From a virus (lineage: Duplodnaviria; Heunggongvirae; Uroviricota; Caudoviricetes): a stretch of 32,113 nucleotides of DNA. Both the position numbers and the translations under genes were made by a program. The stretch lies in the IMG/VR virus record IMGVR_UViG_2721755710_000003; one strand, written 5' to 3'. Positions 1 to 26,701 of the stretch are shown piece after piece (within the stretch, counting starts at the first letter, position 1; each line of letters begins with the position of its first letter). Below the pieces are notes generated by a model. It was not told the DNA's origin, did no database searches, and saw nothing but the letters and a program-made list of their open reading frames with translations.

Positions 1-276
1 TTACCGACTGCGGCCTGAGTTTTTTAAGTGACGTAAAATCGTGTTGAGGCCAACGCCCATAATGCGGGCAGTTGCCCGGCATCCAACGCCATTCATGGCC
101 ATATCAATGATTTTCTGGTGCGTACCGGGTTGAGAAGCGGTGTAAGTGAACTGCAGTTGCCATGTTTTACGGCAGTGAGAGCAGAGATAGCGCTGATGTC
201 CGGCGGTGCTTTTGCCGTTACGCACCACCCCGTCAGTAGCTGAACAGGAGGGACAGCTGATAGAAACAGAAGCCAC
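1..276 (-). CDS. insA: IS1 InsA (transposition repressor / N-terminal transposase component), complete 91 aa
   Basis: The ORF translation [43 protein letters not shown]... matches IS1 InsA as I recall it, with a zinc-finger CxxC...CxxC and an HTH region. The stop codon is at 1-3 on the minus strand. Confidence 0.92.
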
Positions 277-331
277 TGGAGCACCTCAAAAACACCATCA
301 TACACTAAATCAGTAAGTTGGCAGCATCACC
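1..331 (-). mobile_element. IS1, partial: insA-proximal end with terminal inverted repeat; the rest of the element lies beyond the window start
   Basis: Reverse complement of 281-331 reads GGTGATGCTGCCAACTTACTGATTTAGTGTATGATGG..., which I recognise as the IS1 left terminal repeat, and the adjacent ORF is InsA. The element boundary at 331 abuts phage gene A sequence. Confidence 0.9.
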
Positions 332-2317
332 GAGCGTGTGAATCAGCGCCATGAAATGAACACCGACGCGTCGTTGCTGTTTCTGGCAGAGCGTGACCAC
401 TATGCGCGCCTGCCGGGAATGAATGACAAGGAGCTGAAAAAGTTTGCCGCCCGTATCTCATCGCAGCTTTTCATGATGTATGAGGAACTCAGCGATGCCT
501 GGGTGGATGCACATGGCGAAAAAGAATCGCTGTTTACGGATGAGGCGCAGGCTCACCTCTATGGTCATGTTGCTGGCGCTGCACGTGCTTTCAATATTTC
601 CCCTCTCTACTGGAAAAAATACCGTAAAGGACAGATGACCACGAGGCAGGCATATTCTGCCATTGCCCGTCTGTTTAACGATGAGTGGTGGACTCATCAG
701 CTTAAAGGCCAGCGTATGCGCTGGCATGAGGCGTTACTGATTGCTGTCGGGGAGGTGAATAAAGACCGTTCTCCTTATGCCAGTAAACATGCCATTCGTG
801 ATGTGCGTGCACGCCGCCAGGCAAATCTGGAATTTCTTAAATCGTGTGACCTTGAAAACAGGGAAACCGGCGAGCGCATCGACCTTATCAGTAAGGTGAT
901 GGGCAGTATTTCTAATCCTGAAATTCGCCGGATGGAGCTGATGAACACCATTGCCGGTATTGAGCGTTACGCCGCCTCAGAGGGTGATGTGGGGATGTTT
1001 ATCACGCTGACCGCGCCGTCAAAGTATCACCCGACACGTCAGGTTGGAAAAGGCGAAAATAAAACCGTCCAGCTTAATCACGGCTGGAATGATGAGGCAT
1101 TTAATCCAAAGGATGCGCAGCGTTATCTCTGCCGTATCTGGAGCCTGATGCGCACGGCATTCAAGGATAATGATTTACAGGTCTACGGTTTGCGAGTCGT
1201 CGAGCCACACCACGACGGAACGCCGCACTGGCATATGATGCTTTTTTGTAATCCACGCCAGCGTAACCAGATTATCGAAATCATGCGCCGCTATGCGCTC
1301 AAAGAGGATGGCGACGAAAGAGGAGCCGCGCGAAACCGTTTTCAGGCAAAACACCTTAACCGGGGCGGTGCTGCGGGATATATCGCGAAATACATTTCAA
1401 AAAATATCGACGGCTATGCACTGGATGGTCAGCTCGATAACGATACCGGCAGACCGCTGAAAGATACTGCGGCGGCTGTTACCGCATGGGCGTCAACGTG
1501 GCGCATCCCGCAATTTAAAACGGTTGGCCTGCCGACAATGGGAGCTTACCGTGAGCTACGTAAATTGCCTCGCGGCGTCAGCATTGCTGATGAATTTGAC
1601 GAACGCGTGGAGGCTGCACGCGCCGCCGCAGACAGTGGCGATTTTGCGTTGTATATCAGCGCGCAGGGCGGGGCAAATGTCCCGCGCGATTGTCAGACTG
1701 TCAGGGTCGCCCGTAGCCCGTCGGATGACGTTAACGAATACGAGGAAGAAGTCGAGAGAGTGGTCGGCATTTACGCGCCGCATCTCGGCGCGCGTCATAT
1801 TCATATCACCAGAACGACGGACTGGCGCATTGTGCCGAAAGTTCCGGTCGTTGAGCCCTTGACTTTAAAAAGCGGCATCGCCGCGCCTCGGAGTCCTGTC
1901 AATAACTGTGGAAAGCTCACCGGTGGTGATACTTCGTTACCGGCTCCCACACCTTCTGAACACGCCGCAGCAGTGCTTAATCTGGTTGATGACGGTGTTA
2001 TCGAATGGAATGACCCGGAGGTCGTGAGGGCGCTCAGGGGCGCATTAAAATACGGGCTGAGAACACCAAATCGTCAGCAGAGAAACGGAAGCCCGTTAAA
2101 ACCACATGAAATTGCACCATCGGCCAGACTGACCCGGTCGGAAAGAATGCAAATTACCCGTATCCGCGTTGACCTTGCTCAGAACGGTATCAGGCCGCAG
2201 CGATGGGAGCTTGAGGCGCTGGCGCGTGGCGCGACCGTAAATTATGACGGGAAAAAATTCACGTATCCGGTCGCTGATGAGTGGCCGGGATTCTCAACAG
2301 TAATGGCGCGGATATAA
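332..2317 (+). pseudogene. A: Replication initiation protein GpA (rolling-circle HUH endonuclease), 5'-truncated by the IS1 insertion; about 100 N-terminal codons missing
   Basis: The frame is open from the IS1 boundary, with the first possible start a GTG at 338 and no ATG. The translation contains the HUH motif (PHWHMMLF) and the tyrosine motif (GYIAKYISKN). At about 660 aa it is shorter than the roughly 760 aa I recall for P2 GpA. Confidence 0.85.
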
Positions 2318-2673
2318 TGACAAAGATTCACAAAGTAAAGCTGCACGCAAGATATTTCAACCTTGTGCTGGAGGGAAAAGAAACGCACAGAATTTAGGGG
2401 GATAGCCGTTATCATGTGTATGAAGCACTTGAAATGTATCTGCATCACTTGGGAGTGTGTCAACGGGGAATTTCCATCTATGTGATTTTTTGAGAGCAAT
2501 GCAGTGAAGATAAAGATACTTATTATAAATCAATGTGATAGATGGTGCCTCGCAAACGTAAATGATAGTTTTGAAGCTTCAGGGCTGATGTCGTTCATAA
2601 GACTATGTTTACGCTATCATTTATGATAAAAATAATTAATTTTTATCATAAAGATTCAACAGAGGATATGTTG

Positions 2674-4179
2674 ATGAATCAACTAAAATCAATGAATATC
2701 AATAAGTTACTTTTGGATGTTGATAACCCTCGTTTCCCGACGTCAGCAGAAAATCAGCGTGATGCTATTGCCAAGATGCTTGACTTGCAGTACGACCGCA
2801 TTTATCGCTTGGCTAAAGATATTGCTTCGAAAGGTTTAGATCCGTCTGAAAACATATTAGTTTATCCTAGTGAAGAGGAATCTGGCTTTTTCGTCGTTGC
2901 TGAAGGTAATCGTCGAGTTACAGCCCTTAAACTTTTACACTCTCCTAGACTTGCACCAACAGAAAAAGCACGGAAAGCTTTTGAAAAACTTAAGATTACT
3001 CAGCTTAAAGATATTAATGTTATAGATAACTGCGTTCTTTTTGACGATGATGAATATGAGCATTGGGTCAATTTAAAGCATACTGGTCAAAATGCTGGAG
3101 TTGGAAGAGTTGAATGGACTGCAACAGAAAAAGCACGACATCTGGCTAGGATGGGTAAGCAGTCATTTGGTAATCAAATACTTACATTTATAGAGTTCAA
3201 TACTGATTTATATAAAGAGATAATTGCTAAAAAAAGACTTTTAAAAATCACAAACATCACGCGTCTTTTTGGTGATTTAAAGGTGAGGGATTATTTTAAT
3301 TTAAAAAGCATTAATGGAGTTCTATACTCATATCAGCCTTATGAACGTTTTTGTGTACAATTAAAAAATATTTTAGATGTAATGATTGAAGAGGATGATA
3401 AAGGTAAGGCTTGTTTTACTGTTAATAGGATTCGTAGCCAAGATGACAGGGTTACATTTATTATTGAACAAAAAATAAAACCTTCAGAATCTCTTTTAGA
3501 TAAGCCGTGGAGTTTACTAGAGCCTAAATCTTTTCTTACAGAGAAAAAACATGATTCTATTGACAAAAATGATGCATCTGTGAGTGTAAAGAAAGTAGGT
3601 CTTTCAGAAGGTGATGCCTTAAAGAATACAGGTGTGGATAAACAGGAAGATGATTATTCTAGACATGTAGGCACAGAAGAGAGTAAATCTAAAGTTTCGG
3701 GTACGGAACAGAATAAAAACAAGGGAAAAACTCCTCCTAAAGTAGATCGTAATGTGTTGGTGCCATCTTATGTGAAATTTAATTTTAGAGGGCATAAGAA
3801 ATGCTCTAGAATATTTAATGAGCTTAAGTCGCATCTGACATTTGATAACACCCCTAATGCTATCTCAATATTGTTGAGAATATTTATAGATCTCTCTGTA
3901 AGCACTTTTGTTGAAGAAAACAAGTTACAATTTAAGGAACCACATAGAACTCCAGGGCTTCATGATAAGGTTAAAATGTGTGCTAATTTCCTTCGGGAAA
4001 ATAAAAAGATGACGGGGAGTCAATGTACGGCTGTAATAACTTTCTCGAGCCAAATAACTAAACATGATGGTTCATTGCAGCAGTATGTACATAACCCACA
4101 CTTAATTCCCTCAAAAGAGGCTGTCAACACTGAGTGGGATAACTTTGAGTTGTTATTAAGCCTTATTTGGAGTGAGTGA
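2674..4179 (+). CDS. Accessory protein with an N-terminal ParB/Srx-superfamily domain (DUF262/DGQHR-like), a K/E/S-rich linker and an uncharacterised C-terminal domain
   Basis: The translation has INKLLLDVDNPRF followed by GFFVVAEGNRRVTALKLL, the ParB-type box pattern. The gene is strongly AT-rich. AGAGGA at 2661-2666 sits 7 nt upstream of the ATG at 2674; the ORF is open from 2605, with an alternative ATG at 2668, so the exact start is uncertain. Confidence 0.6.
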   Translation: MNQLKSMNINKLLLDVDNPRFPTSAENQRDAIAKMLDLQYDRIYRLAKDIASKGLDPSENILVYPSEEESGFFVVAEGNRRVTALKLLHSPRLAPTEKARKAFEKLKITQLKDINVIDNCVLFDDDEYEHWVNLKHTGQNAGVGRVEWTATEKARHLARMGKQSFGNQILTFIEFNTDLYKEIIAKKRLLKITNITRLFGDLKVRDYFNLKSINGVLYSYQPYERFCVQLKNILDVMIEEDDKGKACFTVNRIRSQDDRVTFIIEQKIKPSESLLDKPWSLLEPKSFLTEKKHDSIDKNDASVSVKKVGLSEGDALKNTGVDKQEDDYSRHVGTEESKSKVSGTEQNKNKGKTPPKVDRNVLVPSYVKFNFRGHKKCSRIFNELKSHLTFDNTPNAISILLRIFIDLSVSTFVEENKLQFKEPHRTPGLHDKVKMCANFLRENKKMTGSQCTAVITFSSQITKHDGSLQQYVHNPHLIPSKEAVNTEWDNFELLLSLIWSE

Positions 4180-4191
4180 GATTTGTCTACA

Positions 4192-4211
4192 TCTGGACAT
4201 GGATGTCCAGA
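4192..4211. promoter_or_regulatory. Perfect 9-bp inverted repeat with 2-bp spacer (TCTGGACAT gg ATGTCCAGA) in the 69-bp gap between the two cassette genes; candidate operator
   Basis: Read directly from the sequence. It lies about 37 bp upstream of the methyltransferase ATG and just upstream of its GAGAGGGA ribosome-binding site. Confidence 0.4.
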
Positions 4212-4248
4212 AACTGATAAACTACAAAATCAGGAATGAGAGGGATTT

Positions 4249-5133
4249 ATGAAATTTTATACTCCATTAAGATACCCCGGCGGGAAAGGTAAGTTATCTT
4301 ACTTTTTAAAAGATGTTATTGAAAAAAACTCGTTGAATGATGGAGCATATGCAGAACCTTACGCTGGTGGTGCAGGGGTGGCTTTAGAATTATTATTGGA
4401 AGAGTATGTCCGTAAAATCTATATAAATGATGCAGATTTTGCTGTTTATTCTTTTTGGTCATCTGTTGTTAGTGATACTGATGAGCTTTGCCGACTTATT
4501 AGCCGAGCAAAGATAGATATGGATGAATGGTCTTTTCATCGCTATGTTATTTCGAATCCTTCTGAGTTTACTAAGCTTGAGGTTGGCTTTGCTGCGTTTT
4601 TCTTAAATAGAACAAATCGTTCAGGTATTCTCAAGGCGGGGGTTATAGGCGGGAAATCACAAAATGGAAAATGGAAAATGGATGTTCGCTTTAACAGGGC
4701 GGATTTAATTTCAAGAATTGAGAAGATAGCAAATTATAATCAAAGAATAGTAGTAACTAATCTGGATGCTTTGGATTTTCTTGATGCCTTGAATTTTATG
4801 GATAATATGGGAAAGGTGGATAAAAATAAAATTCTTTTGTATTTGGATCCTCCTTACTATATTAAAGGGCAAGGGCTTTACAGGAATTTTTATGAGCATG
4901 ATGACCATGTATTGGTTATGAAGAAACTCACAGAAATTAATTTCCCAAATTGGCTTGTTTCTTATGATAACGCTAAGGAAATTAAAGATATTTATAATGG
5001 ATTTCCGCAAGTTGAGTATTCATTGCAATATACAGCGCATCTCAAAAAATCTGGAGAGGAAGTGATGATTTTTTCTCCTGAAATAATTATTCCTAATACC
5101 CTGAAAGGGGTCTCAATGCCAACTTGCGCCTGA
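4249..5133 (+). CDS. Dam-family (D12 class) N6-adenine DNA methyltransferase, 294 aa
   Basis: Motifs align with E. coli Dam as I recall it: PLRYPGGKGK (Dam LKWAGGK), EPYAGGAGV (Dam EPFVGAGSV), FFLNRTNRSG (Dam FLYLNRYGYNG) and the catalytic LYLDPPYY (DPPY). The gene is AT-rich with a GAGAGGGA ribosome-binding site. Confidence 0.8.
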   Translation: MKFYTPLRYPGGKGKLSYFLKDVIEKNSLNDGAYAEPYAGGAGVALELLLEEYVRKIYINDADFAVYSFWSSVVSDTDELCRLISRAKIDMDEWSFHRYVISNPSEFTKLEVGFAAFFLNRTNRSGILKAGVIGGKSQNGKWKMDVRFNRADLISRIEKIANYNQRIVVTNLDALDFLDALNFMDNMGKVDKNKILLYLDPPYYIKGQGLYRNFYEHDDHVLVMKKLTEINFPNWLVSYDNAKEIKDIYNGFPQVEYSLQYTAHLKKSGEEVMIFSPEIIIPNTLKGVSMPTCA

Positions 5134-5280
5134 TTTTACTTATTTTTTGTCAGTAAGTAATTAGTTTGGTGCATTTATTTGCATTCATTTTTAAATGCCA
5201 GTTCTGGTATCTAACATCAGTGCTGGCGCATTCTAACCATTACTGCTGCACTGCATTTAAAGCCCTGCATGAAGCGGGCG

Positions 5281-5299
5281 GGCGAGGCGGGGAAAGCAC
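5281..5299. other. cos: Phage cos site (19-nt cohesive-end sequence GGCGAGGCGGGGAAAGCAC)
   Basis: Exact match to the P2 cohesive-end sequence as I recall it, located between the accessory cassette and the 3' end of Q, where cos lies in P2. Confidence 0.8.
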
Positions 5300-5466
5300 T
5301 GCGCGCTGACGGTGGTGCTGATTGTATTTTTTCAGCGTCTCAGCGCGTCGTGACGGCACTTAGTCTGCCCGTTGAGGCGTTGTGTGTCTGCGGGGTGTTT
5401 TGTGCGGTGGTGAGCGTGTGAGGGGGGATGACGGGGTGTAAAAAAGCCGCCCGCAGGCGGCGATGT

Positions 5467-6501
5467 TCAGTCGTTGTCAGTGTCCAGTGAGTAGTTTTTA
5501 AAGCGGATGACCTCCTGACCGAGCCAGCCGTTTATCTCGCGGATCCTGTCCTGTAACGGGATAAGCTCATTGCGGACAAAGACCTTTGCCACTTTCTCAA
5601 TATCACCCAGCGACCCGACGTTCTCCGGCTTGCCACCCATCAACTGAAAGGGGATGCGGTGCGCGTCCAGCAGGTCAGCGGCGCTGGCTTTTTTGATATT
5701 AAAAAAATCGTCCTTCGTCGCCACTTCACTGAGGGGGATAATTTTAATGCCGTCGGCTTTCCCCTGTGGGGCATAGAGAAACAGGTTTTTAAAGTTGTTG
5801 CGGCCTTTCGACTTGACCATGTTTTCGCGAAGCATTTCGATATCGTTGCGATCCTGCACGGCATCGGTGACGTACATGATGTATCCGGCATGTGCGCCAT
5901 TTTCGTAATACTTGCGGCGGAACAACGTGGCCGACTCATTCAGCCAGGCAGAGTTAAGGGCGCTGAGATATTCCGGCAGGCCGTACAGCTCCTGATTAAT
6001 ATCCGGCTCCAGCAGGTGAAACACGGAGCCGGGCGCGAAGGCTGTCGGCTCGTTGAAGGACGGCACCCACCAGTAAACATCCTCTTCCACGCCACGGCGG
6101 GTATATTTTGCCGGTGAGGTTTCCAGTCTGATGACCTTACCGGTGGTGCTGTAACGCTTTTCCAGAAACGCATTACCGAACACCAGAAAATCCAGCACAA
6201 AGCGGCTGAAATCCTGCTGGGAAAGCCATGGATGCGGGATAAATGTCGAGGCCAGAATATTGCGTTTGACGTAAATCGGCGAGCTGTGATGCACGGCAGC
6301 CCGCAGGCTTTTTGCCAGACCGGTAAAGCTGACCGGTGGCTCATACCATCTGCCGTTACTGATGCACTCGACGTAATCCAGAATGTCACGGCGGTCGAGT
6401 ACCGGCACCGGCTCACCAAAGGTGAATGCCTCCATTTTCGGGCCGCTGGCGGTCATTGTTTTTGCCGCAGGTTGCGGTGTTTTCCCTTTTTTCTTGCTCA
6501 T
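5467..6501 (-). CDS. Q: Portal protein GpQ, 344 aa
   Basis: Translation and length match P2 GpQ as I recall it. Its start overlaps the stop of P by 1 nt. Confidence 0.93.
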   Translation of the reverse strand: MSKKKGKTPQPAAKTMTASGPKMEAFTFGEPVPVLDRRDILDYVECISNGRWYEPPVSFTGLAKSLRAAVHHSSPIYVKRNILASTFIPHPWLSQQDFSRFVLDFLVFGNAFLEKRYSTTGKVIRLETSPAKYTRRGVEEDVYWWVPSFNEPTAFAPGSVFHLLEPDINQELYGLPEYLSALNSAWLNESATLFRRKYYENGAHAGYIMYVTDAVQDRNDIEMLRENMVKSKGRNNFKNLFLYAPQGKADGIKIIPLSEVATKDDFFNIKKASAADLLDAHRIPFQLMGGKPENVGSLGDIEKVAKVFVRNELIPLQDRIREINGWLGQEVIRFKNYSLDTDND

Positions 6502-8273
6502 CAGTAAAACTCCAGAATGGTGGATGTCAGCGGGGTGCTGATACCGGCGGTGAGTGGCTCATTTAACAGGGCGTGCATGGTCGCCCAGGCGAGGTCGGCG
6601 TGGCTGGCTTCCTCGCTGCGGCTGGCCTCATAGGTGGCGCTGCGTCCGCTGCTGGTCATGGTCTTGCGGATAGCCATAAACGAGCTGGTGATGTCGGTGG
6701 CGCTGACGTCGTATTCCAGACAGCCACGGCGGATAACGTCTTTTGCCTTGAGCACCATTGCGGTTTTCATTTCCGGCGTGTAGCGGATATCACGCGCGGC
6801 GGGATAGAACGAGCGCACGAGCTGGAACACGCCGACACCGAGGCCGGTGGCATCAATACCGATGTATTCGACGTTGTATCTTTCGGTGAGTTTGCGGATG
6901 GATTCCGCCTGGGTGGCAAAGTCCATGCCTTTCCACTGGTGACGCTCAAGTATTCTGAATTTGCCACCGGCCACCACCGGCGGTGCCAGTACCACGCATC
7001 CGGCGCTGTCGCCACGGTGTGACGGGTCGTAACCAATCCATACCGGGCGGGAGCCGAACGGATTGGCGGCAAACGGCGCATAGTCTTCCCATTCTTCCAG
7101 CGTGTCGACCATGCAGCGTTGCAGCTCCTCGAACGGGAACACCGATGCCTTGTCGTCAACAAATTCACACATGAACAGGTTTTTAAAATCGTCGGCGCTG
7201 TTTTCGCGTTTGAGCTGCTCAATGTCGAACAGCGTGCAGCCGCCTTTCAGGGCGTCCTCAATGGTGACAATCTGTCGCCACTGGCCGTCCGCACAGAGAA
7301 GCCCACCGGCAAGGGCGTTATGACTGACGTCGATTTCCACGCGTTCGGCGGCGCTGGCGCGTCCCCGGTTAAACAGTTCACCCGACCAGAACGGGTAGGC
7401 GTCGTGCGCCAGCGTGGACGGGGTGGAGAAATAGGTCGAGCGCAGGTGACTCTGTGAGGCCATACCTGATGCCACCTTACGCAGTACCTGAAAATTCGGG
7501 ATCCAGAAAATCTCATCGACGTACAGGTCGCCGTTATGACTCTGCGCGGTGTTGGAGTTGGTGCCGAGAAAAATCAGTTTTGCGCCGTTATTGCCCAGGA
7601 CAATCGGGTCACCGGTCAGGTCAACGTCAACCAGACGGGCAAAGGCGATGATGTATTCGCGGAACACATACGCCTGCGTTTTACTGGCCGACAGAAAAAT
7701 CTGGTTATGACCGGTTTTCAGGGCACGCAGCAGCGCCTCGCGGGAAAAATAAAACGTCGCGCCAATCTGGCGGGATTTCAGGATATCGCGGATGCGGTGC
7801 TCAAGCCCGGCACGATACCAGTGCAGCTGATAGTCGAAAGACTGCTCAAAGAAAATCTGCTCCAGCTTTTCGATGGCCTCGTCACTGAAAAAATTCTTTT
7901 TCGGTTTGCGCCGTCCGCCTTTGTTACGGTTAGCGACGTTCGGATTAAGGTCTGCCTCGTTGCCGGTCTGGCTGTAGCGGTTGACCCGTGCCAGTCGTTC
8001 AATCTGGCGTCCCAGCAGGTCAATTTCCTTGAAGTCACCGCCGGTTTTCTGTGGTTTGATGATGAGCTGGGTCAGCCGCGCTTCCAGACTCATTTCGACA
8101 CGGCTGATGGGGGCAACGCTGTCCCAGCCGTCGCGCTGTTTCCAGCTCTGCACTGTCGGGCGTTTCATCTGCAACATGGCGGCAATCTGCGGCACGGAAA
8201 ACCCCTGCCAGTACAGCAGCGCCGCCTGACGACGCGGGTCGTGTAAAAGAGTGGTGTCTGTGGTGATGGTCAT
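6501..8273 (-). CDS. P: Terminase large subunit (ATPase/endonuclease) GpP, 590 aa
   Basis: The ORF is open from 8303, but the P2-like protein starts at MTITTDTTLLHDPRR, giving 6501..8273. Gene order and size match P2 GpP. Confidence 0.92.
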   Translation of the reverse strand: MTITTDTTLLHDPRRQAALLYWQGFSVPQIAAMLQMKRPTVQSWKQRDGWDSVAPISRVEMSLEARLTQLIIKPQKTGGDFKEIDLLGRQIERLARVNRYSQTGNEADLNPNVANRNKGGRRKPKKNFFSDEAIEKLEQIFFEQSFDYQLHWYRAGLEHRIRDILKSRQIGATFYFSREALLRALKTGHNQIFLSASKTQAYVFREYIIAFARLVDVDLTGDPIVLGNNGAKLIFLGTNSNTAQSHNGDLYVDEIFWIPNFQVLRKVASGMASQSHLRSTYFSTPSTLAHDAYPFWSGELFNRGRASAAERVEIDVSHNALAGGLLCADGQWRQIVTIEDALKGGCTLFDIEQLKRENSADDFKNLFMCEFVDDKASVFPFEELQRCMVDTLEEWEDYAPFAANPFGSRPVWIGYDPSHRGDSAGCVVLAPPVVAGGKFRILERHQWKGMDFATQAESIRKLTERYNVEYIGIDATGLGVGVFQLVRSFYPAARDIRYTPEMKTAMVLKAKDVIRRGCLEYDVSATDITSSFMAIRKTMTSSGRSATYEASRSEEASHADLAWATMHALLNEPLTAGISTPLTSTILEFY

Positions 8274-8446
8274 GAATACCTCGCCGTGATGAATACACGG
8301 CAAGGCTACTGAGTCGCGCCCCGCGATTCGCTAAGGTGCTGTTGTGTCAGTGATAAGCCATCCGGGACTGATGGCGGAGGATGCGCATCGTCGGGAAACT
8401 GATGCCGACATGTGACTCCTCTAATCACTATTCAGGACTCCTGACA
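8274..8446. promoter_or_regulatory. Divergent P/O intergenic region, expected to carry the two Ogr-dependent late promoters
   Basis: Position only, between divergently transcribed P and O. I could not find a perfect TGT-N12-ACA dyad by eye; the nearest is TGT-N12-CAC at 8411-8428. Confidence 0.4.
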
Positions 8447-16788: not shown

Positions 16789-17233
16789 GTTTAAGCGTTT
16801 TGAAGACCGGCTGACCGGACTGATTGAATCGCTGTCACCGTCAGGGCGTCGGCGACTGAGTGCCGAACTGGCGAAACGTCTGCGGCAGAGTCAGCAGCGT
16901 CGGGTGATGGCACAGAAAGCCCCGGACGGCACACCCTACGCGCCACGCCAGCAGCAGAGCGTCAGAAAAAAGACCGGTCGCGTTAAGCGAAAAATGTTTG
17001 CGAAACTTATTACCAGTCGTTTTTTGCATATCCGTGCCAGCCCGGAGCAGGCATCAATGGAATTTTACGGCGGGAAGTCGCCGAAAATCGCCAGTGTGCA
17101 TCAGTTTGGTCTGTCGGAAGAAAACCGGAAAGACGGTAAGAAAATTGATTATCCGGCGCGTCCCCTGCTCGGCTTTACCGGTGAGGATGTGCAGATGATT
17201 GAAGAGATTATCCTGGCTCACCTTGAGCGTTAG
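16781..17233 (+). CDS. S: Tail completion protein GpS, 150 aa
   Basis: Size and position as in P2. Confidence 0.9.
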   Translation: MNEFKRFEDRLTGLIESLSPSGRRRLSAELAKRLRQSQQRRVMAQKAPDGTPYAPRQQQSVRKKTGRVKRKMFAKLITSRFLHIRASPEQASMEFYGGKSPKIASVHQFGLSEENRKDGKKIDYPARPLLGFTGEDVQMIEEIILAHLER

Positions 17234-17262
17234 TTTTATCCAGGCAGAGGCTGATGCGCAAT

Positions 17263-17299
17263 TAAACATTGAGCGGCCATGCTGGTCGCTCAATGTTTA
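17263..17299. terminator. 13-bp perfect-stem hairpin (TAAACATTGAGCG / CGCTCAATGTTTA, 11-nt loop) between convergent S and the orf30-position gene; candidate bidirectional terminator
   Basis: Inverted repeat read directly from the sequence. There is no strong U-tract on either strand, so the function is uncertain. Confidence 0.45.
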
Positions 17300-17304
17300 G
17301 AGGT

Positions 17305-18090
17305 TTATGAGTGATTTTTATTTGATGCTTTGTATTCTAAAACCTTCTTATTGGCGTAAAAGAATTTTGTATATGACAGGAATATAACCAGACCTGAAGT
17401 GAAATAGACGAGGGATAGTATTAATAATGCTTTTTTGTGACTGTTATTATCTTTAATCTCCTGGCTTAACCATTCGGAGTCCTCCTCGTTTAGCTGTAAG
17501 AGCTTATTGCAGGCGATCTCAGGAAGTGTGTCTTTTATAAATACGTTTTGCAGTCTCTTGCAATCGGCAAGGCTATAAGTTTTATTAAATTCAACTGCTT
17601 TATTTTTGAAGGATAAAAGAACTTTGTCACTATAAACATAGTACATCATGTTTTTATATGGTATGCCTGTGGCATCCCTTACTATAACGGATTGTTCGTT
17701 GTGTATGTAACATGCGAGGAGAATGTAAAAAATACTGGCCAGAATTACAATTATTGTTTTAATTATGTGTGGTGGTTTTGTTATGTCACCCCAGATACGA
17801 GTAAGGAAAAAATACGATGTTTTTAGTTTTCCATCAATCAGTCCCTGCTGTATCATTCTCACATTTTCAATGCCTGATACATTGATTCCGTTAATTATTT
17901 TAAATAGTTGAATATCGCGCCACTCGCGGTCAAGTCTTTTTAATTTTTTGTCTGAATATCCAAAATTGAAATAATGTGCAATAAGCCTCATAAGGTTACT
18001 TTTACCAAAGCTAAAAAATGCTAATACTGCAAAGCTACAAAGGAAAAAAACGATTAGCCCCCACACATTAGTCACATTATAGCTGACCAT
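17305..18090 (-). CDS. AT-rich hypothetical membrane protein with three predicted transmembrane helices, 261 aa, antisense to the late operons at the S/V junction (P2 orf30 position)
   Basis: Hydrophobic stretches GLIVFFLCSFAVLAFFSF, IIKTIIVILASIFYILLACYI and ALLILSLVYFTSGLVIFLSY. A strong ribosome-binding site (AAGGAGAG) lies 4 nt upstream of the ATG on the minus strand. Confidence 0.7.
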   Translation of the reverse strand: MVSYNVTNVWGLIVFFLCSFAVLAFFSFGKSNLMRLIAHYFNFGYSDKKLKRLDREWRDIQLFKIINGINVSGIENVRMIQQGLIDGKLKTSYFFLTRIWGDITKPPHIIKTIIVILASIFYILLACYIHNEQSVIVRDATGIPYKNMMYYVYSDKVLLSFKNKAVEFNKTYSLADCKRLQNVFIKDTLPEIACNKLLQLNEEDSEWLSQEIKDNNSHKKALLILSLVYFTSGLVIFLSYTKFFYANKKVLEYKASNKNHS

Positions 18091-18105
18091 TACGCTCTCC
18101 TTGAA

Positions 18106-18125
18106 TGTTGTCTGGTAGTTCTACA
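18106..18125 (+). promoter_or_regulatory. Candidate Ogr-dependent late promoter element for the V operon (TGTTGTCTGGTAGTTCTACA; imperfect TGT...ACA dyad)
   Basis: Partial dyad about 50-70 bp upstream of the V start, where an activator-dependent late promoter is expected. Spacing is N11 or N14 rather than a perfect N12. Confidence 0.4.
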
Positions 18126-18173
18126 AATGAATCCAGATAGCATAACTTTTATATATTGTGCAATCTCACATGC

Positions 18174-18809
18174 ATGAACACTCTCGCAAATATTCAGGAA
18201 CTCGCGCGCGCACTGCGCAACATGATTCGCACTGGCATTATCGTCGAAACCGACCTTAACGCCGGTCGCTGCCGCGTGCAGACCGGCGGCATGTGCACCG
18301 ACTGGCTTCAGTGGCTGACCCATCGCGCAGGACGTTCGCGCACATGGTGGGCACCTTCCGTGGGGGAACAGGTGCTGATTCTGGCCGTGGGTGGTGAACT
18401 CGACACGGCGTTCGTTCTGCCGGGGATTTATTCCGGCGATAACCCCTCGCCGTCTGTGTCGGCGGATGCCCTGCATATCCGTTTCCCTGACGGGGCGGTG
18501 ATTGAATATGAACCCGAAACCAGTGCACTCACGGTAAGCGGAATTAAAACGGCCAGCGTGACGGCTTCTGATTCTGTTACTGCCACGGTGCCGGTGGTCA
18601 TGGTGAAAGCATCAACCCGCGTCACCCTGGACACCCCGGAGGTGGTCTGCACCAACAGGCTGATTACCGGCACGCTGGAAGTGCAGAAAGGCGGGACGAT
18701 GCGCGGCAACATTGAACACACCGGCGGTGAACTCTCATCAAACGGTAAGGTACTGCATACCCATAAACACCCCGGCGACAGCGGCGGCACAACCGGGAGT
18801 CCTTTATGA
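18174..18809 (+). CDS. V: Baseplate spike protein GpV, 211 aa
   Basis: Translation from MNTLANIQELARALRNM; size and position as in P2. Confidence 0.9.
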   Translation: MNTLANIQELARALRNMIRTGIIVETDLNAGRCRVQTGGMCTDWLQWLTHRAGRSRTWWAPSVGEQVLILAVGGELDTAFVLPGIYSGDNPSPSVSADALHIRFPDGAVIEYEPETSALTVSGIKTASVTASDSVTATVPVVMVKASTRVTLDTPEVVCTNRLITGTLEVQKGGTMRGNIEHTGGELSSNGKVLHTHKHPGDSGGTTGSPL

Positions 18810-22612: not shown

Positions 22613-23140
22613 ATGCAGCATTTAAAGAACATTAAGTCAGGTAATCCAAAAACAAAAGAGCAATATCAGCTAACAAAGAATTTTGATGTTATCTGGTTAT
22701 GGTCCGAAGACGGAAAAAACTGGTATGAGGAAGTGAAGAACTTTCAGCCAGACACAATAAAGATTGTTTACGATGAAAATAATATTATTGTCGCTATCAC
22801 CAGAGATGCTTCAACGCTTAATCCTGAAGGTTTTAGCGTTGTTGAGGTTCCTGATATTACCTCCAACCGACGTGCTGACGACTCAGGTAAATGGATGTTT
22901 AAGGATGGTGCTGTGGTTAAACGGATTTATACGGCAGATGAACAGCAACAACAGGCAGAATCACAAAAGGCCGCGTTACTTTCCGAAGCGGAAAACGTTA
23001 TTCAGCCACTGGAACGCGCTGTCAGGCTGAATATGGCGACGGATGAGGAACGTGCACGACTGGAGTCATGGGAACGTTACAGCGTTCTGGTCAGCCGTGT
23101 GGATCCTGCAAATCCTGAATGGCCGGAAATGCCGCAATAA
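22613..23140 (+). CDS. G: Tail fibre assembly chaperone GpG, 175 aa
   Basis: Follows H, correct size, AT-rich like the H C-terminus. Confidence 0.85.
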
Positions 23141-23215: not shown

Positions 23216-23533
23216 AAAGCGGACCTTATAAACAAGAACAATGGTCATATCAGTGTGTTTTGATTGCATAGCTAACGTGCGTCTTCCTGTACAGAATCAT
23301 AAGATGATAGGGCATAGGAGATGATTATTATCGCGTGTTTTAAAAATAGCTTTCTGCATCAAGTGTCACTTGCGAAGAGGTATTGGCGCTATGATTGGCA
23401 TCACTCAGTTCAGATAATATTTTAAATATTTGGTAAATGTTCAGATTACACAATTCGGTCTGCGTCCCGTTAAAATTATCTACTATTAGTTATTACTATG
23501 AGGTGAATGGCAAGTGTTTTCCACTCGCCATTT

Positions 23534-25120
23534 TTATTTTTTTAAAGCCTTTCCGACGTTTAAGGCTTTTGCCAAGCCATAAAATATTTGATATTTCATT
23601 CCTGTTTTTATTTTTGGTGAGATATTTGCGTAACTTCTTTCTCTAAAACACCAACGTATAAACCTATTATTATCTTCGGTTGTTTCTATATAGCATATTA
23701 CATTGAGACCAAAAAGAAACTGAAGGAAGTCATTTGCAGTTGTCATGAATTTTGGTTTTGTTGTGGAAATGGAACTAATATGAGTTTCAAGTTGTTTATA
23801 TGCTAAGAGGTATTCAGCGTAATCAAAAGTATCTTTTCCAGAGAGGAATTCAAAGAACTTTAAAAAAATCTCATAATGTTCACTTCCATAATAAAATGAT
23901 AAATGATCTTTTATTTCTCCAAGTAAATAGTTAGAGTAATCTCTTTGCATGCTAGGACTTTCAAAGTCATCTAGACTAAATTGATTTTTCCCATCATCAC
24001 CGCTGGCGTGTGATTTGATAATTTCGAGCATCCGTAATATATCTCTTGGGCGATAATATGACCAGCGAAGGAAATTAATAAATGATGTGGGGTGGTTATA
24101 ATTATCATGGACGTTGGGTGAATCCCAAGGGAAATAATGGTCCCATGCCTGTCCCTTTTTAAGGGCCATGTCTTGCTGAGTCCTAAGCAGATGATCTAAT
24201 ACCTCAAATAATTGAGAGCTACGGTGGTTAACATATTCTGTCCGCCAGTCCAAGAATACTGAATTATCTCTGATTTTTGCGTTTTGATTTTGTAATCCTA
24301 TGGATTCAAATATATCTGGCCTGATCAAGAGAACGGCCTTCATTCTCCCTTTTCCTCCCTTTATACTTGGGAAGAAATCGTTGTTAATCTCCCAGACTGC
24401 GTGAGCTAATCCTTTTATACATTCTAGATAATCATCGTATGGAATTGAGGAAGGGCGGATATCAATACCATCGATAAATAAAATATGATTTTGAGATAAA
24501 CGTATTTGGCTAAAGGCCTCTTCAAATTTTTTTTGTATATAAAATAAATTTATCTGAAATCTGCTCTCAGAAAAAGATAAAGACTCTCTTTCTTCACCTT
24601 TTAAGGTTGCATGCTTATGAAGTAGTTCGGCTGCAACTTTTGACTCTTGAACAAAACTGAGGGCTTGAATTATTTCTGGTGAAAATGCCTTAAGATAATA
24701 CTCATCTATTGCATCATTAAGTGATGAGAATTTTGAATAATTTAGTAACTTTGAAATTTTCCCTTCTTTATCTAATACTTGTTTTGATATTAATAAATAT
24801 AGAATAACTTTCCATATGCCAGAGAAGTCAGACAAATTTAAATGCTTTTCAGATTTAAGAGTGATAAATTTTTGATATTCTGTCTCTCTTATATATTTAG
24901 TTGTAGCTAGCGTATTGTTAATATTGTTATTTGAGAGATAGATAGAGTATGCGGTTTTACCAGTACCTTTCTCTCCTACAAGAAACGATATATTTGGTTC
25001 ACATAATCTAGATAGGTGATTATCACGTATGAACACTTTGTTAAGTAATTCTTTATTCTCCCTTCTCTTATAATTTTCAGCATCAGCATAGCCAAGAGTT
25101 AGATCTTTGATTGGTATCAT
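23534..25120 (-). CDS. AT-rich P-loop NTPase (Walker A GEKGTGKT, Walker B-like ILFIDGID), 528 aa, antisense to the tail genes in the Z/fun position
   Basis: N-terminal motifs FLVGEKGTGKTAYSIYL and HILFIDGIDIRP. A GAGGT ribosome-binding site precedes the ATG on the minus strand. The roughly 300-aa C-terminal region has no motif I can recognise by eye. Confidence 0.7.
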   Translation of the reverse strand: MIPIKDLTLGYADAENYKRRENKELLNKVFIRDNHLSRLCEPNISFLVGEKGTGKTAYSIYLSNNNINNTLATTKYIRETEYQKFITLKSEKHLNLSDFSGIWKVILYLLISKQVLDKEGKISKLLNYSKFSSLNDAIDEYYLKAFSPEIIQALSFVQESKVAAELLHKHATLKGEERESLSFSESRFQINLFYIQKKFEEAFSQIRLSQNHILFIDGIDIRPSSIPYDDYLECIKGLAHAVWEINNDFFPSIKGGKGRMKAVLLIRPDIFESIGLQNQNAKIRDNSVFLDWRTEYVNHRSSQLFEVLDHLLRTQQDMALKKGQAWDHYFPWDSPNVHDNYNHPTSFINFLRWSYYRPRDILRMLEIIKSHASGDDGKNQFSLDDFESPSMQRDYSNYLLGEIKDHLSFYYGSEHYEIFLKFFEFLSGKDTFDYAEYLLAYKQLETHISSISTTKPKFMTTANDFLQFLFGLNVICYIETTEDNNRFIRWCFRERSYANISPKIKTGMKYQIFYGLAKALNVGKALKK

Positions 25121-25379
25121 TATTACCTCAACTAAAGCAATTGAAAAACATATGGTTATAAAAACATAGCGCTGCTCTGTCGCATATTGTGGATATCAAC
25201 ATATGAAATGTAAAGGAACTATTTGTGGATGAATGAACCGAATCGCTGTAGCTTCGGTAGTCATCTTTCAGACTTGTATAAATGAACAACTTCCGCTTCT
25301 CGCTCAAAGGAAACTGTCAGATTTGATAGCTTTTGGGCTATGTAAACTGTCAGTCGGAAAATGAGTGAGTACAAATCAG

Positions 25380-25510
25380 GGCAGGTGAGCGAATTGCCCG
25401 CCTTTTCTTTACCGGTGGTTGTGCTGTCGATTAGCCAACCGGGACAAATAGCCTGACATCTCCGGCGCAACTGAAAATACCACTCACCCATTAACCACGG
25501 AGTTAAACGG
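25380..25510 (+). promoter_or_regulatory. Expected position of the late promoter for the FI-FII-E-T-U-D operon
   Basis: Position only: intergenic region upstream of FI. No convincing dyad found by eye. Confidence 0.3.
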
Positions 25511-26701
25511 ATGAGTGACTATCATCACGGCGTGCAGGTGCTGGAGATTAACGAGGGCACCCGCGTCATTTCCACCGTATCCACGGCCATTGTCGGCATG
25601 GTCTGCACGGCCAGCGATGCAGATGCGGAAACCTTCCCCCTCAATAAACCTGTGCTGATTACCAATGTGCAGAGCGCAATTTCAAAGGCCGGTAAAAAAG
25701 GCACGCTGGCGGCATCGTTGCAGGCCATCGCTGACCAGTCAAAACCGGTCACCGTTGTCGTGCGCGTGGAAGACGGCACCGGTGATGACGAGGAAACGAA
25801 ACTCGCGCAGACCGTTTCCAATATCATCGGCACCACCGATGAAAACGGTCAGTACACCGGACTAAAAGCCCTGCTGGCGGCGGAGTCGGTAACCGGTGTT
25901 AAACCGCGTATTCTCGGCGTGCCGGGACTGGATACCAAAGAGGTGGCTGTTGCACTGGCATCAGTCTGTCAGAAGCTGCGTGCTTTCGGGTATATCAGCG
26001 CATGGGGCTGTAAAACCATTTCCGAGGTGAAAGCCTATCGTCAGAATTTCAGCCAGCGTGAGCTGATGGTCATCTGGCCGGATTTCCTCGCATGGGATAC
26101 GGTCACCAGTACCACCGCCACCGCGTATGCCACCGCCCGTGCGCTGGGGCTGCGCGCTAAAATCGACCAGGAGCAGGGCTGGCATAAAACGCTGTCCAAT
26201 GTCGGGGTGAACGGTGTTACCGGCATCAGCGCATCTGTATTCTGGGATTTGCAGGAGTCCGGCACCGATGCTGACCTGCTTAACGAGTCAGGCGTCACTA
26301 CGCTGATTCGCCGCGACGGTTTCCGCTTCTGGGGTAACCGTACCTGCTCTGATGACCCGCTGTTCCTCTTTGAAAACTACACCCGCACCGCGCAGGTGCT
26401 GGCCGACACGATGGCTGAGGCGCACATGTGGGCGGTGGACAAGCCCATCACTGCAACGCTGATTCGCGACATCGTTGACGGCATCAATGCCAAATTCCGT
26501 GAGCTGAAAACAAACGGCTATATCGTGGATGCGACCTGCTGGTTCAGCGAAGAATCCAACGATGCGGAAACCCTCAAGGCCGGAAAACTGTATATCGACT
26601 ACGACTATACACCGGTGCCTCCTCTCGAAAACCTGACCCTGCGCCAGCGTATTACCGATAAATACCTGGCAAATCTGGTCACCTCGGTTAACAGCAATTA
26701 A
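25511..26701 (+). CDS. FI: Tail sheath protein GpFI, 396 aa
   Basis: Size and position as in P2. Confidence 0.92.
   Translation: MSDYHHGVQVLEINEGTRVISTVSTAIVGMVCTASDADAETFPLNKPVLITNVQSAISKAGKKGTLAASLQAIADQSKPVTVVVRVEDGTGDDEETKLAQTVSNIIGTTDENGQYTGLKALLAAESVTGVKPRILGVPGLDTKEVAVALASVCQKLRAFGYISAWGCKTISEVKAYRQNFSQRELMVIWPDFLAWDTVTSTTATAYATARALGLRAKIDQEQGWHKTLSNVGVNGVTGISASVFWDLQESGTDADLLNESGVTTLIRRDGFRFWGNRTCSDDPLFLFENYTRTAQVLADTMAEAHMWAVDKPITATLIRDIVDGINAKFRELKTNGYIVDATCWFSEESNDAETLKAGKLYIDYDYTPVPPLENLTLRQRITDKYLANLVTSVNSN

Follow-up and report, generated by a model that had tools for sequence, protein, structure and literature searches.

The DNA analysed here, hereafter the window, is the 32,113-nt IMG/VR virus record IMGVR_UViG_2721755710_000003, which is a P2-like prophage with a guanine-plus-cytosine (GC) content of 50.7%. 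Between the P2 replication gene A and the cohesive-end site cos, at positions 2318–5280, it carries a cassette of two genes that is almost certainly a copy of the anti-phage system PD-λ-5, borne as a 'moron' in the gpA-cos-gpQ accessory hotspot. The GC fraction falls to 0.29–0.38 across ~2400–5200, against 0.50–0.59 on either flank, and the insert (2400–5270) averages 35.0%. An earlier sequence-only reading of this DNA had described two co-oriented AT-rich genes 69 bp apart in the slot occupied by tin and old in reference P2, and both parts of this description agree with the annotation and with two published accounts of the gpA-cos-gpQ hotspot (Rousset et al., PMC9122126; Vassallo et al., PMC9519451). 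Homologues of tin and old are absent from the slot, where apart from the cassette only a DUF3850 remnant is found, and a variant of either gene was discarded because no similarity was detected. Besides the two cassette genes, the insert contains no further open reading frame (ORF) of at least 50 amino acids (aa) with a family match. The interval ends at 5280, the base directly before GGCGAGGCGGGGAAAGCAC, which we take to be P2 cos. The features of the locus are as follows.

338–2317, plus strand: P2 A replication endonuclease ORF, left flank of the cassette.
2317–2398, plus strand: DUF3850/P2 orf91-like pseudogene remnant, annotated by RefSeq as frameshifted and incomplete on identical DNA in E. 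coli IAL7250 and A7.
2402–2673, plus strand: upstream non-coding region with the native promoter, as contained in the clone of Vassallo et al., which includes 272 bp upstream.
2674–4179, plus strand: PD-λ-5A, 501 aa, with a predicted ParB/Srx-like N-terminal half, a disordered linker and a C-terminal HEPN-fold domain (PADLOC, identity to A7, PHROG).
2674–3048, plus strand: PD-λ-5A residues 1–125, predicted ParB/Srx (ParB-CTPase) fold, with NPRF as a box I-like motif and EGNRR as box II, a GxxR phosphate-binding motif.
3049–3543, plus strand: residues 126–290, mostly helical middle region and possible DNA-binding module (alignment, AlphaFold2, Foldseek).
3544–3738, plus strand: residues 291–355, K/S/D/E-rich disordered linker of variable length (composition, alignment, predicted local distance difference test [pLDDT] below 50).
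3739–4176, plus strand: residues 356–501, helical domain of ~146 aa with a predicted HEPN fold.
4180–4248, plus strand: intergenic spacer of 69 bp with a GAGGG ribosome-binding site for the second gene.
4249–5133, plus strand: PD-λ-5B, 294 aa, D12-class N6-adenine DNA methyltransferase (PADLOC, Pfam, motifs, 292/294 residues identical to RCQ13838.1).
5281–5299, plus strand: GGCGAGGCGGGGAAAGCAC, exact string of the presumed P2 cos, the right hotspot boundary, outside the system.
5467–6501, minus strand: portal gene Q, right flank, intact ORF of 344 aa.
6501–8303, minus strand: terminase gene P, right flank.

The identification is carried by both genes. Against PADLOC-DB, the protein of the first gene matched PD-Lambda-5_A (PDLC03998; E=1.7e-167, 556 bits), with residues 24–523 of its longest ORF aligned to profile positions 1–465 of 466, and 24 further PD-Lambda-5_A profiles matched it as well; it also belongs to PHROG 9592 (E=1e-209). 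The protein of the second gene matched PD-Lambda-5_B (PDLC04018; E=1.4e-121, 403 bits) over residues 1–286 and profile positions 1–280 of 291. Both profile matches, adjacency on the same strand at 69 bp and near-identity to the type system place the pair in PD-λ-5 as PADLOC delimits it. The whole 2963-bp segment recurs at 99.8–100% identity in 22 of the 5426 complete E. coli genomes searched, including that of strain A7 from an orangutan, and is therefore no chance feature. Relative to the A7 proteins, PD-λ-5A is identical at 499/501 positions (substitutions V228A and V308A) and PD-λ-5B at 292/294 (A180V and V288G).

The cluster member with accession RCQ13838.1, the PD-λ-5B of ECOR7, matches the A7 methyltransferase at 100% identity; judged by this protein, A7 is ECOR7 itself or carries an identical system, and the window accordingly holds the type allele with two residues differing in each protein. 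The type system lies on ECOR7 contig QOWS01000001, with proteins RCQ13837.1 and RCQ13838.1 (Vassallo et al. 2022, Table S2, PMC9519451), and its genes span 264599–267059, or 2461 bp, compared with 2460 bp (2674–5133) in the window. From the shared genome and the equal gene span we infer that PD-λ-5A likewise corresponds to RCQ13837.1. The comparison suggests no functional difference between the window allele and ECOR7 PD-λ-5. The cassette is thus already known: it was named and experimentally validated in 2022 and is listed in PADLOC. The sequence-only reading had not recognised the architecture as a named system, and had stated that finding both genes in a characterised system of the same architecture would speak against novelty; since this is what the searches returned, the claim of novelty falls.

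PD-λ-5 emerged from a functional selection in which fragments of E. coli genomes were challenged with λvir (Vassallo et al. 2022, PMC9519451). Expressed on a low-copy plasmid from its own promoter, the type system reduced the plating or plaque size of nine of ten test phages, with T-even phages hit hardest, weaker protection against λvir or T7, and no block of adsorption (PMC9519451). The clone contained 272 bp 5' of the first gene (264327 versus 264599) and no vector promoter, and because the cassette was cloned alone and still defended, it requires nothing else from the prophage (PMC9519451). Its discoverers annotated the genes as 'ParB/HEPN, methyltransferase', termed the whole a compacted prophage 'RM+Abi' system (restriction-modification plus abortive infection) in P2 hotspot #1, which extends from the replication endonuclease gene to the portal gene, and counted it among the systems whose domains putatively bind or cleave DNA, in which it is the sole one with a methylase (PMC9519451). 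A role in defence, as the sequence-only reading had suggested, is therefore established experimentally for a 99%-identical copy; the same phenotype contradicts its other suggestion, that the genes form a phage anti-restriction pair. In the insert, promoter-like hexamers occur at chance level (12 found against 10.8 expected), and a terminator scan returned nothing convincing between the two genes.

The mechanically called ORF of the first gene extends over 2605–4179 (524 aa). We place the start at ATG 2674, which gives 501 aa, because a GAGGA ribosome-binding site lies 8 nt upstream (2661–2665), RefSeq uses this start on identical DNA and the PADLOC profile aligns only from residue 24 of the longer ORF onwards. 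Numbered from this start, NPRF stands at residue 18, VVAEGNRRVTALKLL at residue 74 and the K/E/S-rich linker at residues 291–355, so that all three elements named in the sequence-only reading are present. A total of 204 homologous matches were collected, and 39 of them, spanning 30–78% identity, were aligned. Invariant positions fall in three blocks: N18, R20 and E77-G78-N79-R80-R81 in the N-terminal part; the motif W131...H136-x-G138-x-N140-x-G142 together with R197 and D201 in the middle; and R359, P364, E383, L384, R402, Y471, H473 and N474 in the C-terminal part. The linker is unalignable, rich in insertions and deletions, and unconserved among these homologues. An AlphaFold2 model built from the alignment has a mean pLDDT of 79, with residues 291–355 below 50 and disordered. 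We take the invariant N18/R20 and EGNRR to be equivalent to the conserved boxes of ParB, whose motifs are GERRxRA and NPxQPR.

Structural comparison of this model against the PDB with Foldseek placed C-terminally truncated, nucleotide-bound KorB and ParB at the top (probability ~1.0, 215–285 columns), and these alignments reach past the ParB N-domain into the middle region. The predicted N-terminal domain has the ParB/Srx fold and is structurally closest to the nucleoside triphosphate (NTP)-binding proteins ParB, KorB, PadC and SerK, not to characterised nucleases. On these models, the N-terminal half is a ParB/Srx-superfamily module that lies closer to the ParB-CTPase branch than to either DUF262 or DndB, and residues 126–290 may bind DNA. 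The ParB/Srx call of the sequence-only reading is shared by Foldseek and by published HHpred results (ParBc, 96.4% probability), and the likeness to DUF262 and DndB that it had also proposed gives way to ParB/KorB. The C-terminal domain, which the same reading had put at about 130 aa and left unassigned, is present at ~146 aa; its predicted structure contains the four-helix HEPN core, in agreement with the published annotation. Within it, Y471, H473 and N474 and, on an earlier helix, R402 remain invariant among homologues down to 25–30% identity.

The second gene encodes a D12-class methyltransferase with a DPPY motif, as had been recognised from the sequence: MethyltransfD12 (PF02086) matched residues 9–255 (E=3.6e-16, 60.1 bits against a cutoff of 22), DPPY (motif IV) lies at residue 200 and the S-adenosylmethionine (SAM)-binding AGGAG at residue 39. 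The Dam subfamily model TIGR00571 scored 47 bits, below its threshold of 114.85, and the closest relative in the PDB, 7m6b, is distant (E=2.3e-12). Its relatives are all named generically as 'DNA adenine methylase' in the source records. By sequence, PD-λ-5B belongs with the D12 adenine methyltransferases but scores too low for the Dam subfamily. The cloning host of the type system was an MG1655 derivative without the mrr region (PMC9519451). This choice, for which the paper gives no reason, suggests that methylation by PD-λ-5B is restricted by the Mrr of K-12 and hence does not fall on GATC.

The two genes are closely associated across homologues. A scan of viral contigs yielded 78 loci, whose ORFs were searched with PD-λ-5A and methyltransferase profiles; clustering of PD-λ-5A at an identity of at least 90% gave 42 clusters. 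A D12 methyltransferase lies within 100 bp downstream of PD-λ-5A in 40/42 clusters, co-oriented in 33 and convergent in seven, and the remaining two run off the ends of their contigs. The convergent layout (L059–L063, L075 and L079) argues against strict co-translation of the two genes. Five viral loci have room downstream and yet no methyltransferase; four of them have shortened PD-λ-5A ORFs of 254–440 aa, and the fifth, L058, has a near full-length ORF of 482 aa. We infer that PD-λ-5A may be harmful or useless without its partner, with which the loss of the methyltransferase alongside a mostly shortened PD-λ-5A would fit. The order of PD-λ-5A followed by a methyltransferase is retained in homologues down to ~25% identity, and in all three distant genomic or metagenomic contexts inspected, a metagenomic contig (30% identity), a Methylomonas chromosome beside Tn7-like tniQ/tniB and a Vibrio island, a D12 methyltransferase stands directly 3' of the homologue.

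At the locus of the 30%-identical metagenomic homologue (L003 7255–10927, L004 3919–7591), the pair is followed by two ORFs, one of 662 aa without a Pfam match and one of 294 aa that weakly matches DpnII-MboI, and the arrangement may represent an extended or stacked RM-like locus. The DpnII-MboI match was considered as a clue to methyltransferase specificity and set aside as too weak and too far downstream.

The mechanism that we propose follows Anantharaman et al. 2013 (PMC3710099), who predicted that ParB-HEPN fusions, and operons combining HEPN, ParB and methylase genes, act as suicide RNases coupled to RM, together with the 'RM+Abi' reading of the discoverers. PD-λ-5B would mark self by methylating the adenines of a non-GATC motif in the DNA of host and prophage. 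The ParB-type nucleotide-binding half of PD-λ-5A, comprising NPRF, EGNRR and the helical middle region, would engage DNA and read the missing mark; on unmarked incoming DNA, the protein would change state, and the flexible linker would couple this change to activation of the C-terminal HEPN domain. The effector is probably an RNase with an unusual site, formed by H473, N474 and Y471 with R402 contributed from another helix, whose action would shut down phage, and possibly host, gene expression. The system would thus combine an RM-like recognition layer with an Abi-type effector in one polypeptide. The logic of a methyltransferase marking self is consistent with the discoverers' wording and with the near-universal synteny of the two genes. 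The mechanism as a whole is tentative, and we rate it slightly short of even odds; to the combined statement, that the cassette is PD-λ-5 and works in this manner, we assign a probability of about 0.55. A more specific version, in which PD-λ-5A would be the first ParB-type nucleotide-gated DNA clamp to act as an immune sensor, loading onto or sliding along DNA, reading the methylation laid down by PD-λ-5B and signalling through the linker to a non-canonical HEPN RNase (His/Asn/Tyr plus a distal Arg), we regard as doubtful.

Several observations weigh against this interpretation. No Pfam family was found at E≤1 for PD-λ-5A or any of the 39 homologues, ParBc (PF02195) included, and in a Pfam hmmscan of PD-λ-5A, the 39 homologues and 24 isolated C-terminal domains, no ParBc, DUF262, DUF1524, HNH or HEPN family passed. 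These were among the profile searches that the sequence-only reading had proposed; from the same proposal, MethyltransfD12 was matched in PD-λ-5B, and defence annotation returned PD-λ-5. The NCBIfam RepB model scored below threshold on PD-λ-5A (E=0.021, 14 bits against a cutoff of 201.5), HEPN family profiles in Pfam gave stray weak matches to single members, none of which passes (Csm6 HEPN, E=0.013; DUF5677, E=0.001), and a profile of PD-λ-5A searched against PDB sequences returned noise, the best hit being a ribosomal protein at E=0.11. Because Pfam profiles did not show family membership, the ParBc and HEPN assignments are read from predicted structure together with the published HHpred result. 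In addition, the canonical Rx4-6H motif of HEPN RNases is missing: the sequence around the histidine is G-S-L-Q-Q-Y-V-H473-N, with no Arg 5–7 residues before the His, and R-x6-H occurs only in one distant clade. RNase activity is consequently not assured. Since HEPN families with a conserved His and no Arg are listed by Anantharaman et al. 2013 (PMC3710099), the missing Arg lowers confidence in activity and not in the fold, and catalytic competence is plausible. ParB/Srx domains can act as NTPases, kinases or nickases, so that a sensor role may be one among several; T-even DNA is heavily modified, and a simple reader of unmethylated sites would not ordinarily act so strongly on these phages. 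In the literature searched, there is no mechanistic study of PD-λ-5, only surveys, counts and restatements of the RM/Abi idea, and a survey of ParB-CTPase proteins (PMC12704722) does not cover the ParB/HEPN plus methyltransferase architecture.

The same evidence can be read differently. PD-λ-5A could be a latent HEPN toxin, restrained, in the manner of PrrC-EcoprrI, by the binding or activity of PD-λ-5B or by SAM status, and freed to cause abortive infection when a phage attacks methyltransferases, RM systems or SAM pools; DNA methylation would then not be its self-mark. Precedents are the RM-linked HEPN nucleases PrrC and RloC and, more generally, what Anantharaman et al. (PMC3710099) proposed; the discoverers' 'RM+Abi' wording is compatible with it, as is the finding that T-even phages are affected more than λvir or T7 (PMC9519451), and tight synteny would also be expected of a toxin–antitoxin-like pair. 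We nevertheless consider it unlikely: it leaves the invariant ParB-type nucleotide- and DNA-binding half of PD-λ-5A unexplained, it invokes a complex of the two proteins that is putative, and the convergent methyltransferase in 7/42 clusters is less typical of stoichiometric toxin–antitoxin pairs. Quite improbable, in our view, is an unconventional Type II-like RM system giving direct immunity, in which the ParB/Srx-like domain would nick or cut unmethylated DNA and the HEPN domain would be non-catalytic, serving dimerisation or regulation. Some ParB/Srx proteins do nick DNA (cited in PMC12839542), ParB is listed as an RM-type endoDNase domain by Anantharaman et al. (PMC3710099), and the absence of the canonical Arg from the HEPN domain and the placing of PD-λ-5 among putative DNA binding or cleavage systems, as the only one with a methylase (PMC9519451), point the same way. 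The invariance of Y471, H473, N474 and R402 down to 25–30% identity argues instead for a functional HEPN site, the nearest structural relatives of the N-domain are the NTP-binding ParB, KorB, PadC and SerK rather than characterised nucleases, and T-even phages, which normally resist conventional restriction, are yet the ones best restricted here.

The two readings that would divorce the cassette from defence fare far worse. That the methyltransferase merely shields P2 DNA from restriction while the ParB-like protein performs a housekeeping task in partition or regulation is highly improbable, because the 99%-identical cassette cloned alone makes K-12 resistant to phages (PMC9519451), the pair is also found outside prophages (in Methylomonas beside Tn7-like genes and in Vibrio islands) and a HEPN effector domain has no housekeeping rationale. 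Phage methyltransferases and ParB-methyltransferase fusions are nonetheless common, with a suggested part in anti-defence (PMC12704722), and PD-λ-5B may protect prophage DNA secondarily. Lowest of all we place an ordinary GATC Dam duplicate functionally unlinked to PD-λ-5A, a possibility that the sequence-only reading had itself raised. Both enzymes are D12-class with DPPY, and the RefSeq name is plainly 'DNA adenine methylase'; against this stand the score of PD-λ-5B on the Dam model (47 bits against 114.85), a best PDB relative at only E=2e-12 and an almost constant position adjacent to PD-λ-5A over wide divergence, and a host without the mrr region would have been needless for GATC methylation in dam+ K-12.

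Three further assignments were examined and rejected. A GmrSD-like Type IV enzyme (DUF262 plus DUF1524/HNH) was ruled out since fold and effector differ and the corresponding families were not found; a plasmid partition ParB was ruled out by the lack of a ParA, the lack of a dimerisation domain and the RepB score of 14 bits against 201.5. Pfam, PADLOC and the fold search revealed no PD-(D/E)XK, HNH, GIY-YIG or PLD domain in PD-λ-5A, and the cassette is no classical Type II RM system because no recognisable restriction endonuclease stands beside the methyltransferase.

As a near-identical copy of PD-λ-5 in the hotspot where the system was first described, the cassette is no discovery. Its residual value lies in three features that narrow the hypotheses on PD-λ-5, namely a C-terminal HEPN fold whose YxHN is invariant and which lacks the canonical Arg, an N-terminal half closer to ParB/KorB NTP switches than to DUF262 enzymes and a methyltransferase that is almost never lost beside an intact PD-λ-5A. 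If the RNA-targeting, methylation-reading model were true, PD-λ-5 would be a distinct RM variant and the ParB-CTPase fold would have a new job. Under the clamp-sensor version, RM logic would be joined to a restriction arm that cuts RNA and not DNA, and this would account for the strong effect on T-even phages, which escape restriction of the ordinary, DNA-directed kind.

The DNA around the cassette records further changes. The DUF3850 remnant (2317–2398) lies directly 3' of P2 gene A and forms the left edge of the hotspot insert; this PUA-like remnant is probably all that survives of an ancestral P2 orf91-like gene since the acquisition of the cassette. At window positions 1–331 lies an IS1 end, with an InsA ORF (1–276, minus strand) carrying Pfam InsA domains and a terminal repeat ending at ~330. 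Positions 332–6000 are colinear with the A7 prophage, at 99.0% identity, from 300 nt inside P2 gene A onward; because colinearity with this intact prophage begins only at 332, IS1 interrupts P2 gene A, which probably leaves the prophage unable to replicate, while the defence cassette is intact. The portal gene beside the cassette is marked as frameshifted (1034 nt) by RefSeq in IAL7250 (L001 5350–6383) and A7 (L002 6151–7184). Several complete E. coli chromosome records (H3, H5–H9) begin at base 1 of the replication endonuclease gene of this prophage, with the cassette match at positions 2286/2287 to 5248/5249; presumably, assembly-rotation software mistook P2 gene A for the gene that marks the start of a replicon.

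Two other AT-rich islands were seen in the window. One (~23500–25400) holds an ORF of 528 aa (23534–25120, minus strand; phrog_13260) without a Pfam or PADLOC match, between a tail-fibre assembly gene (22613–23140) and the next tail gene (25511–26701). The Z/fun locus is the second P2 defence hotspot (Vassallo et al., PMC9519451), and the position of the 528-aa ORF in it makes this a candidate uncharacterised defence gene. The other island (~17000–18200) contains an ORF of 261 aa (17305–18090, minus strand; phrog_2407), also without a Pfam or PADLOC match, embedded opposite to the surrounding morphogenesis genes in what looks like another moron slot. We presume this slot to be comparable to that of P2 orf30.

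Among described systems, the ParB-HEPN fusions of the Saro_3948 type and the MAE_28990-type operons of Anantharaman et al. (Biol Direct 8:15; PMC3710099) share with PD-λ-5 the ParB-like, HEPN and DNA methylase modules and the logic of a suicide RNase. This likeness is one of architecture only, as the Pfam HEPN models, including MAE_28990 and Swt1, gave no match at E≤10. PrrC-EcoprrI and RloC resemble it in joining an NTP-binding N-terminal regulator to a C-terminal HEPN effector linked to methylation machinery, as an abortive back-up to restriction (PMC3710099). PrrC differs in having an ABC-ATPase head and the canonical Rx4-6H and in residing within a three-subunit Type Ic RM system, whereas in PD-λ-5 the D12 methyltransferase stands alone, with no restriction endonuclease that could be recognised. 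In GmrSD, BrxU and SspE, the parallel is an N-terminal ParB/Srx NTPase that senses DNA modification and controls a C-terminal nuclease. The CTP-dependent clamps ParB and KorB are the best structural match to residues 1–~290, with box I (NPxxR-F) and box II (G-x-R-R) conserved; in contrast to them, PD-λ-5A is without a ParA partner, the C-terminal dimerisation domain and a parS context, is fused to a HEPN domain and paired with a methyltransferase, and its nucleotide binding is predicted. By far the closest relative is PD-λ-5 of ECOR7 itself (Nat Microbiol 7:1568): it differs by two substitutions in each protein and by the IS1 in P2 gene A of the window prophage, and agrees in genes, order, spacing, length, location in the P2 hotspot and full-length PADLOC matches.

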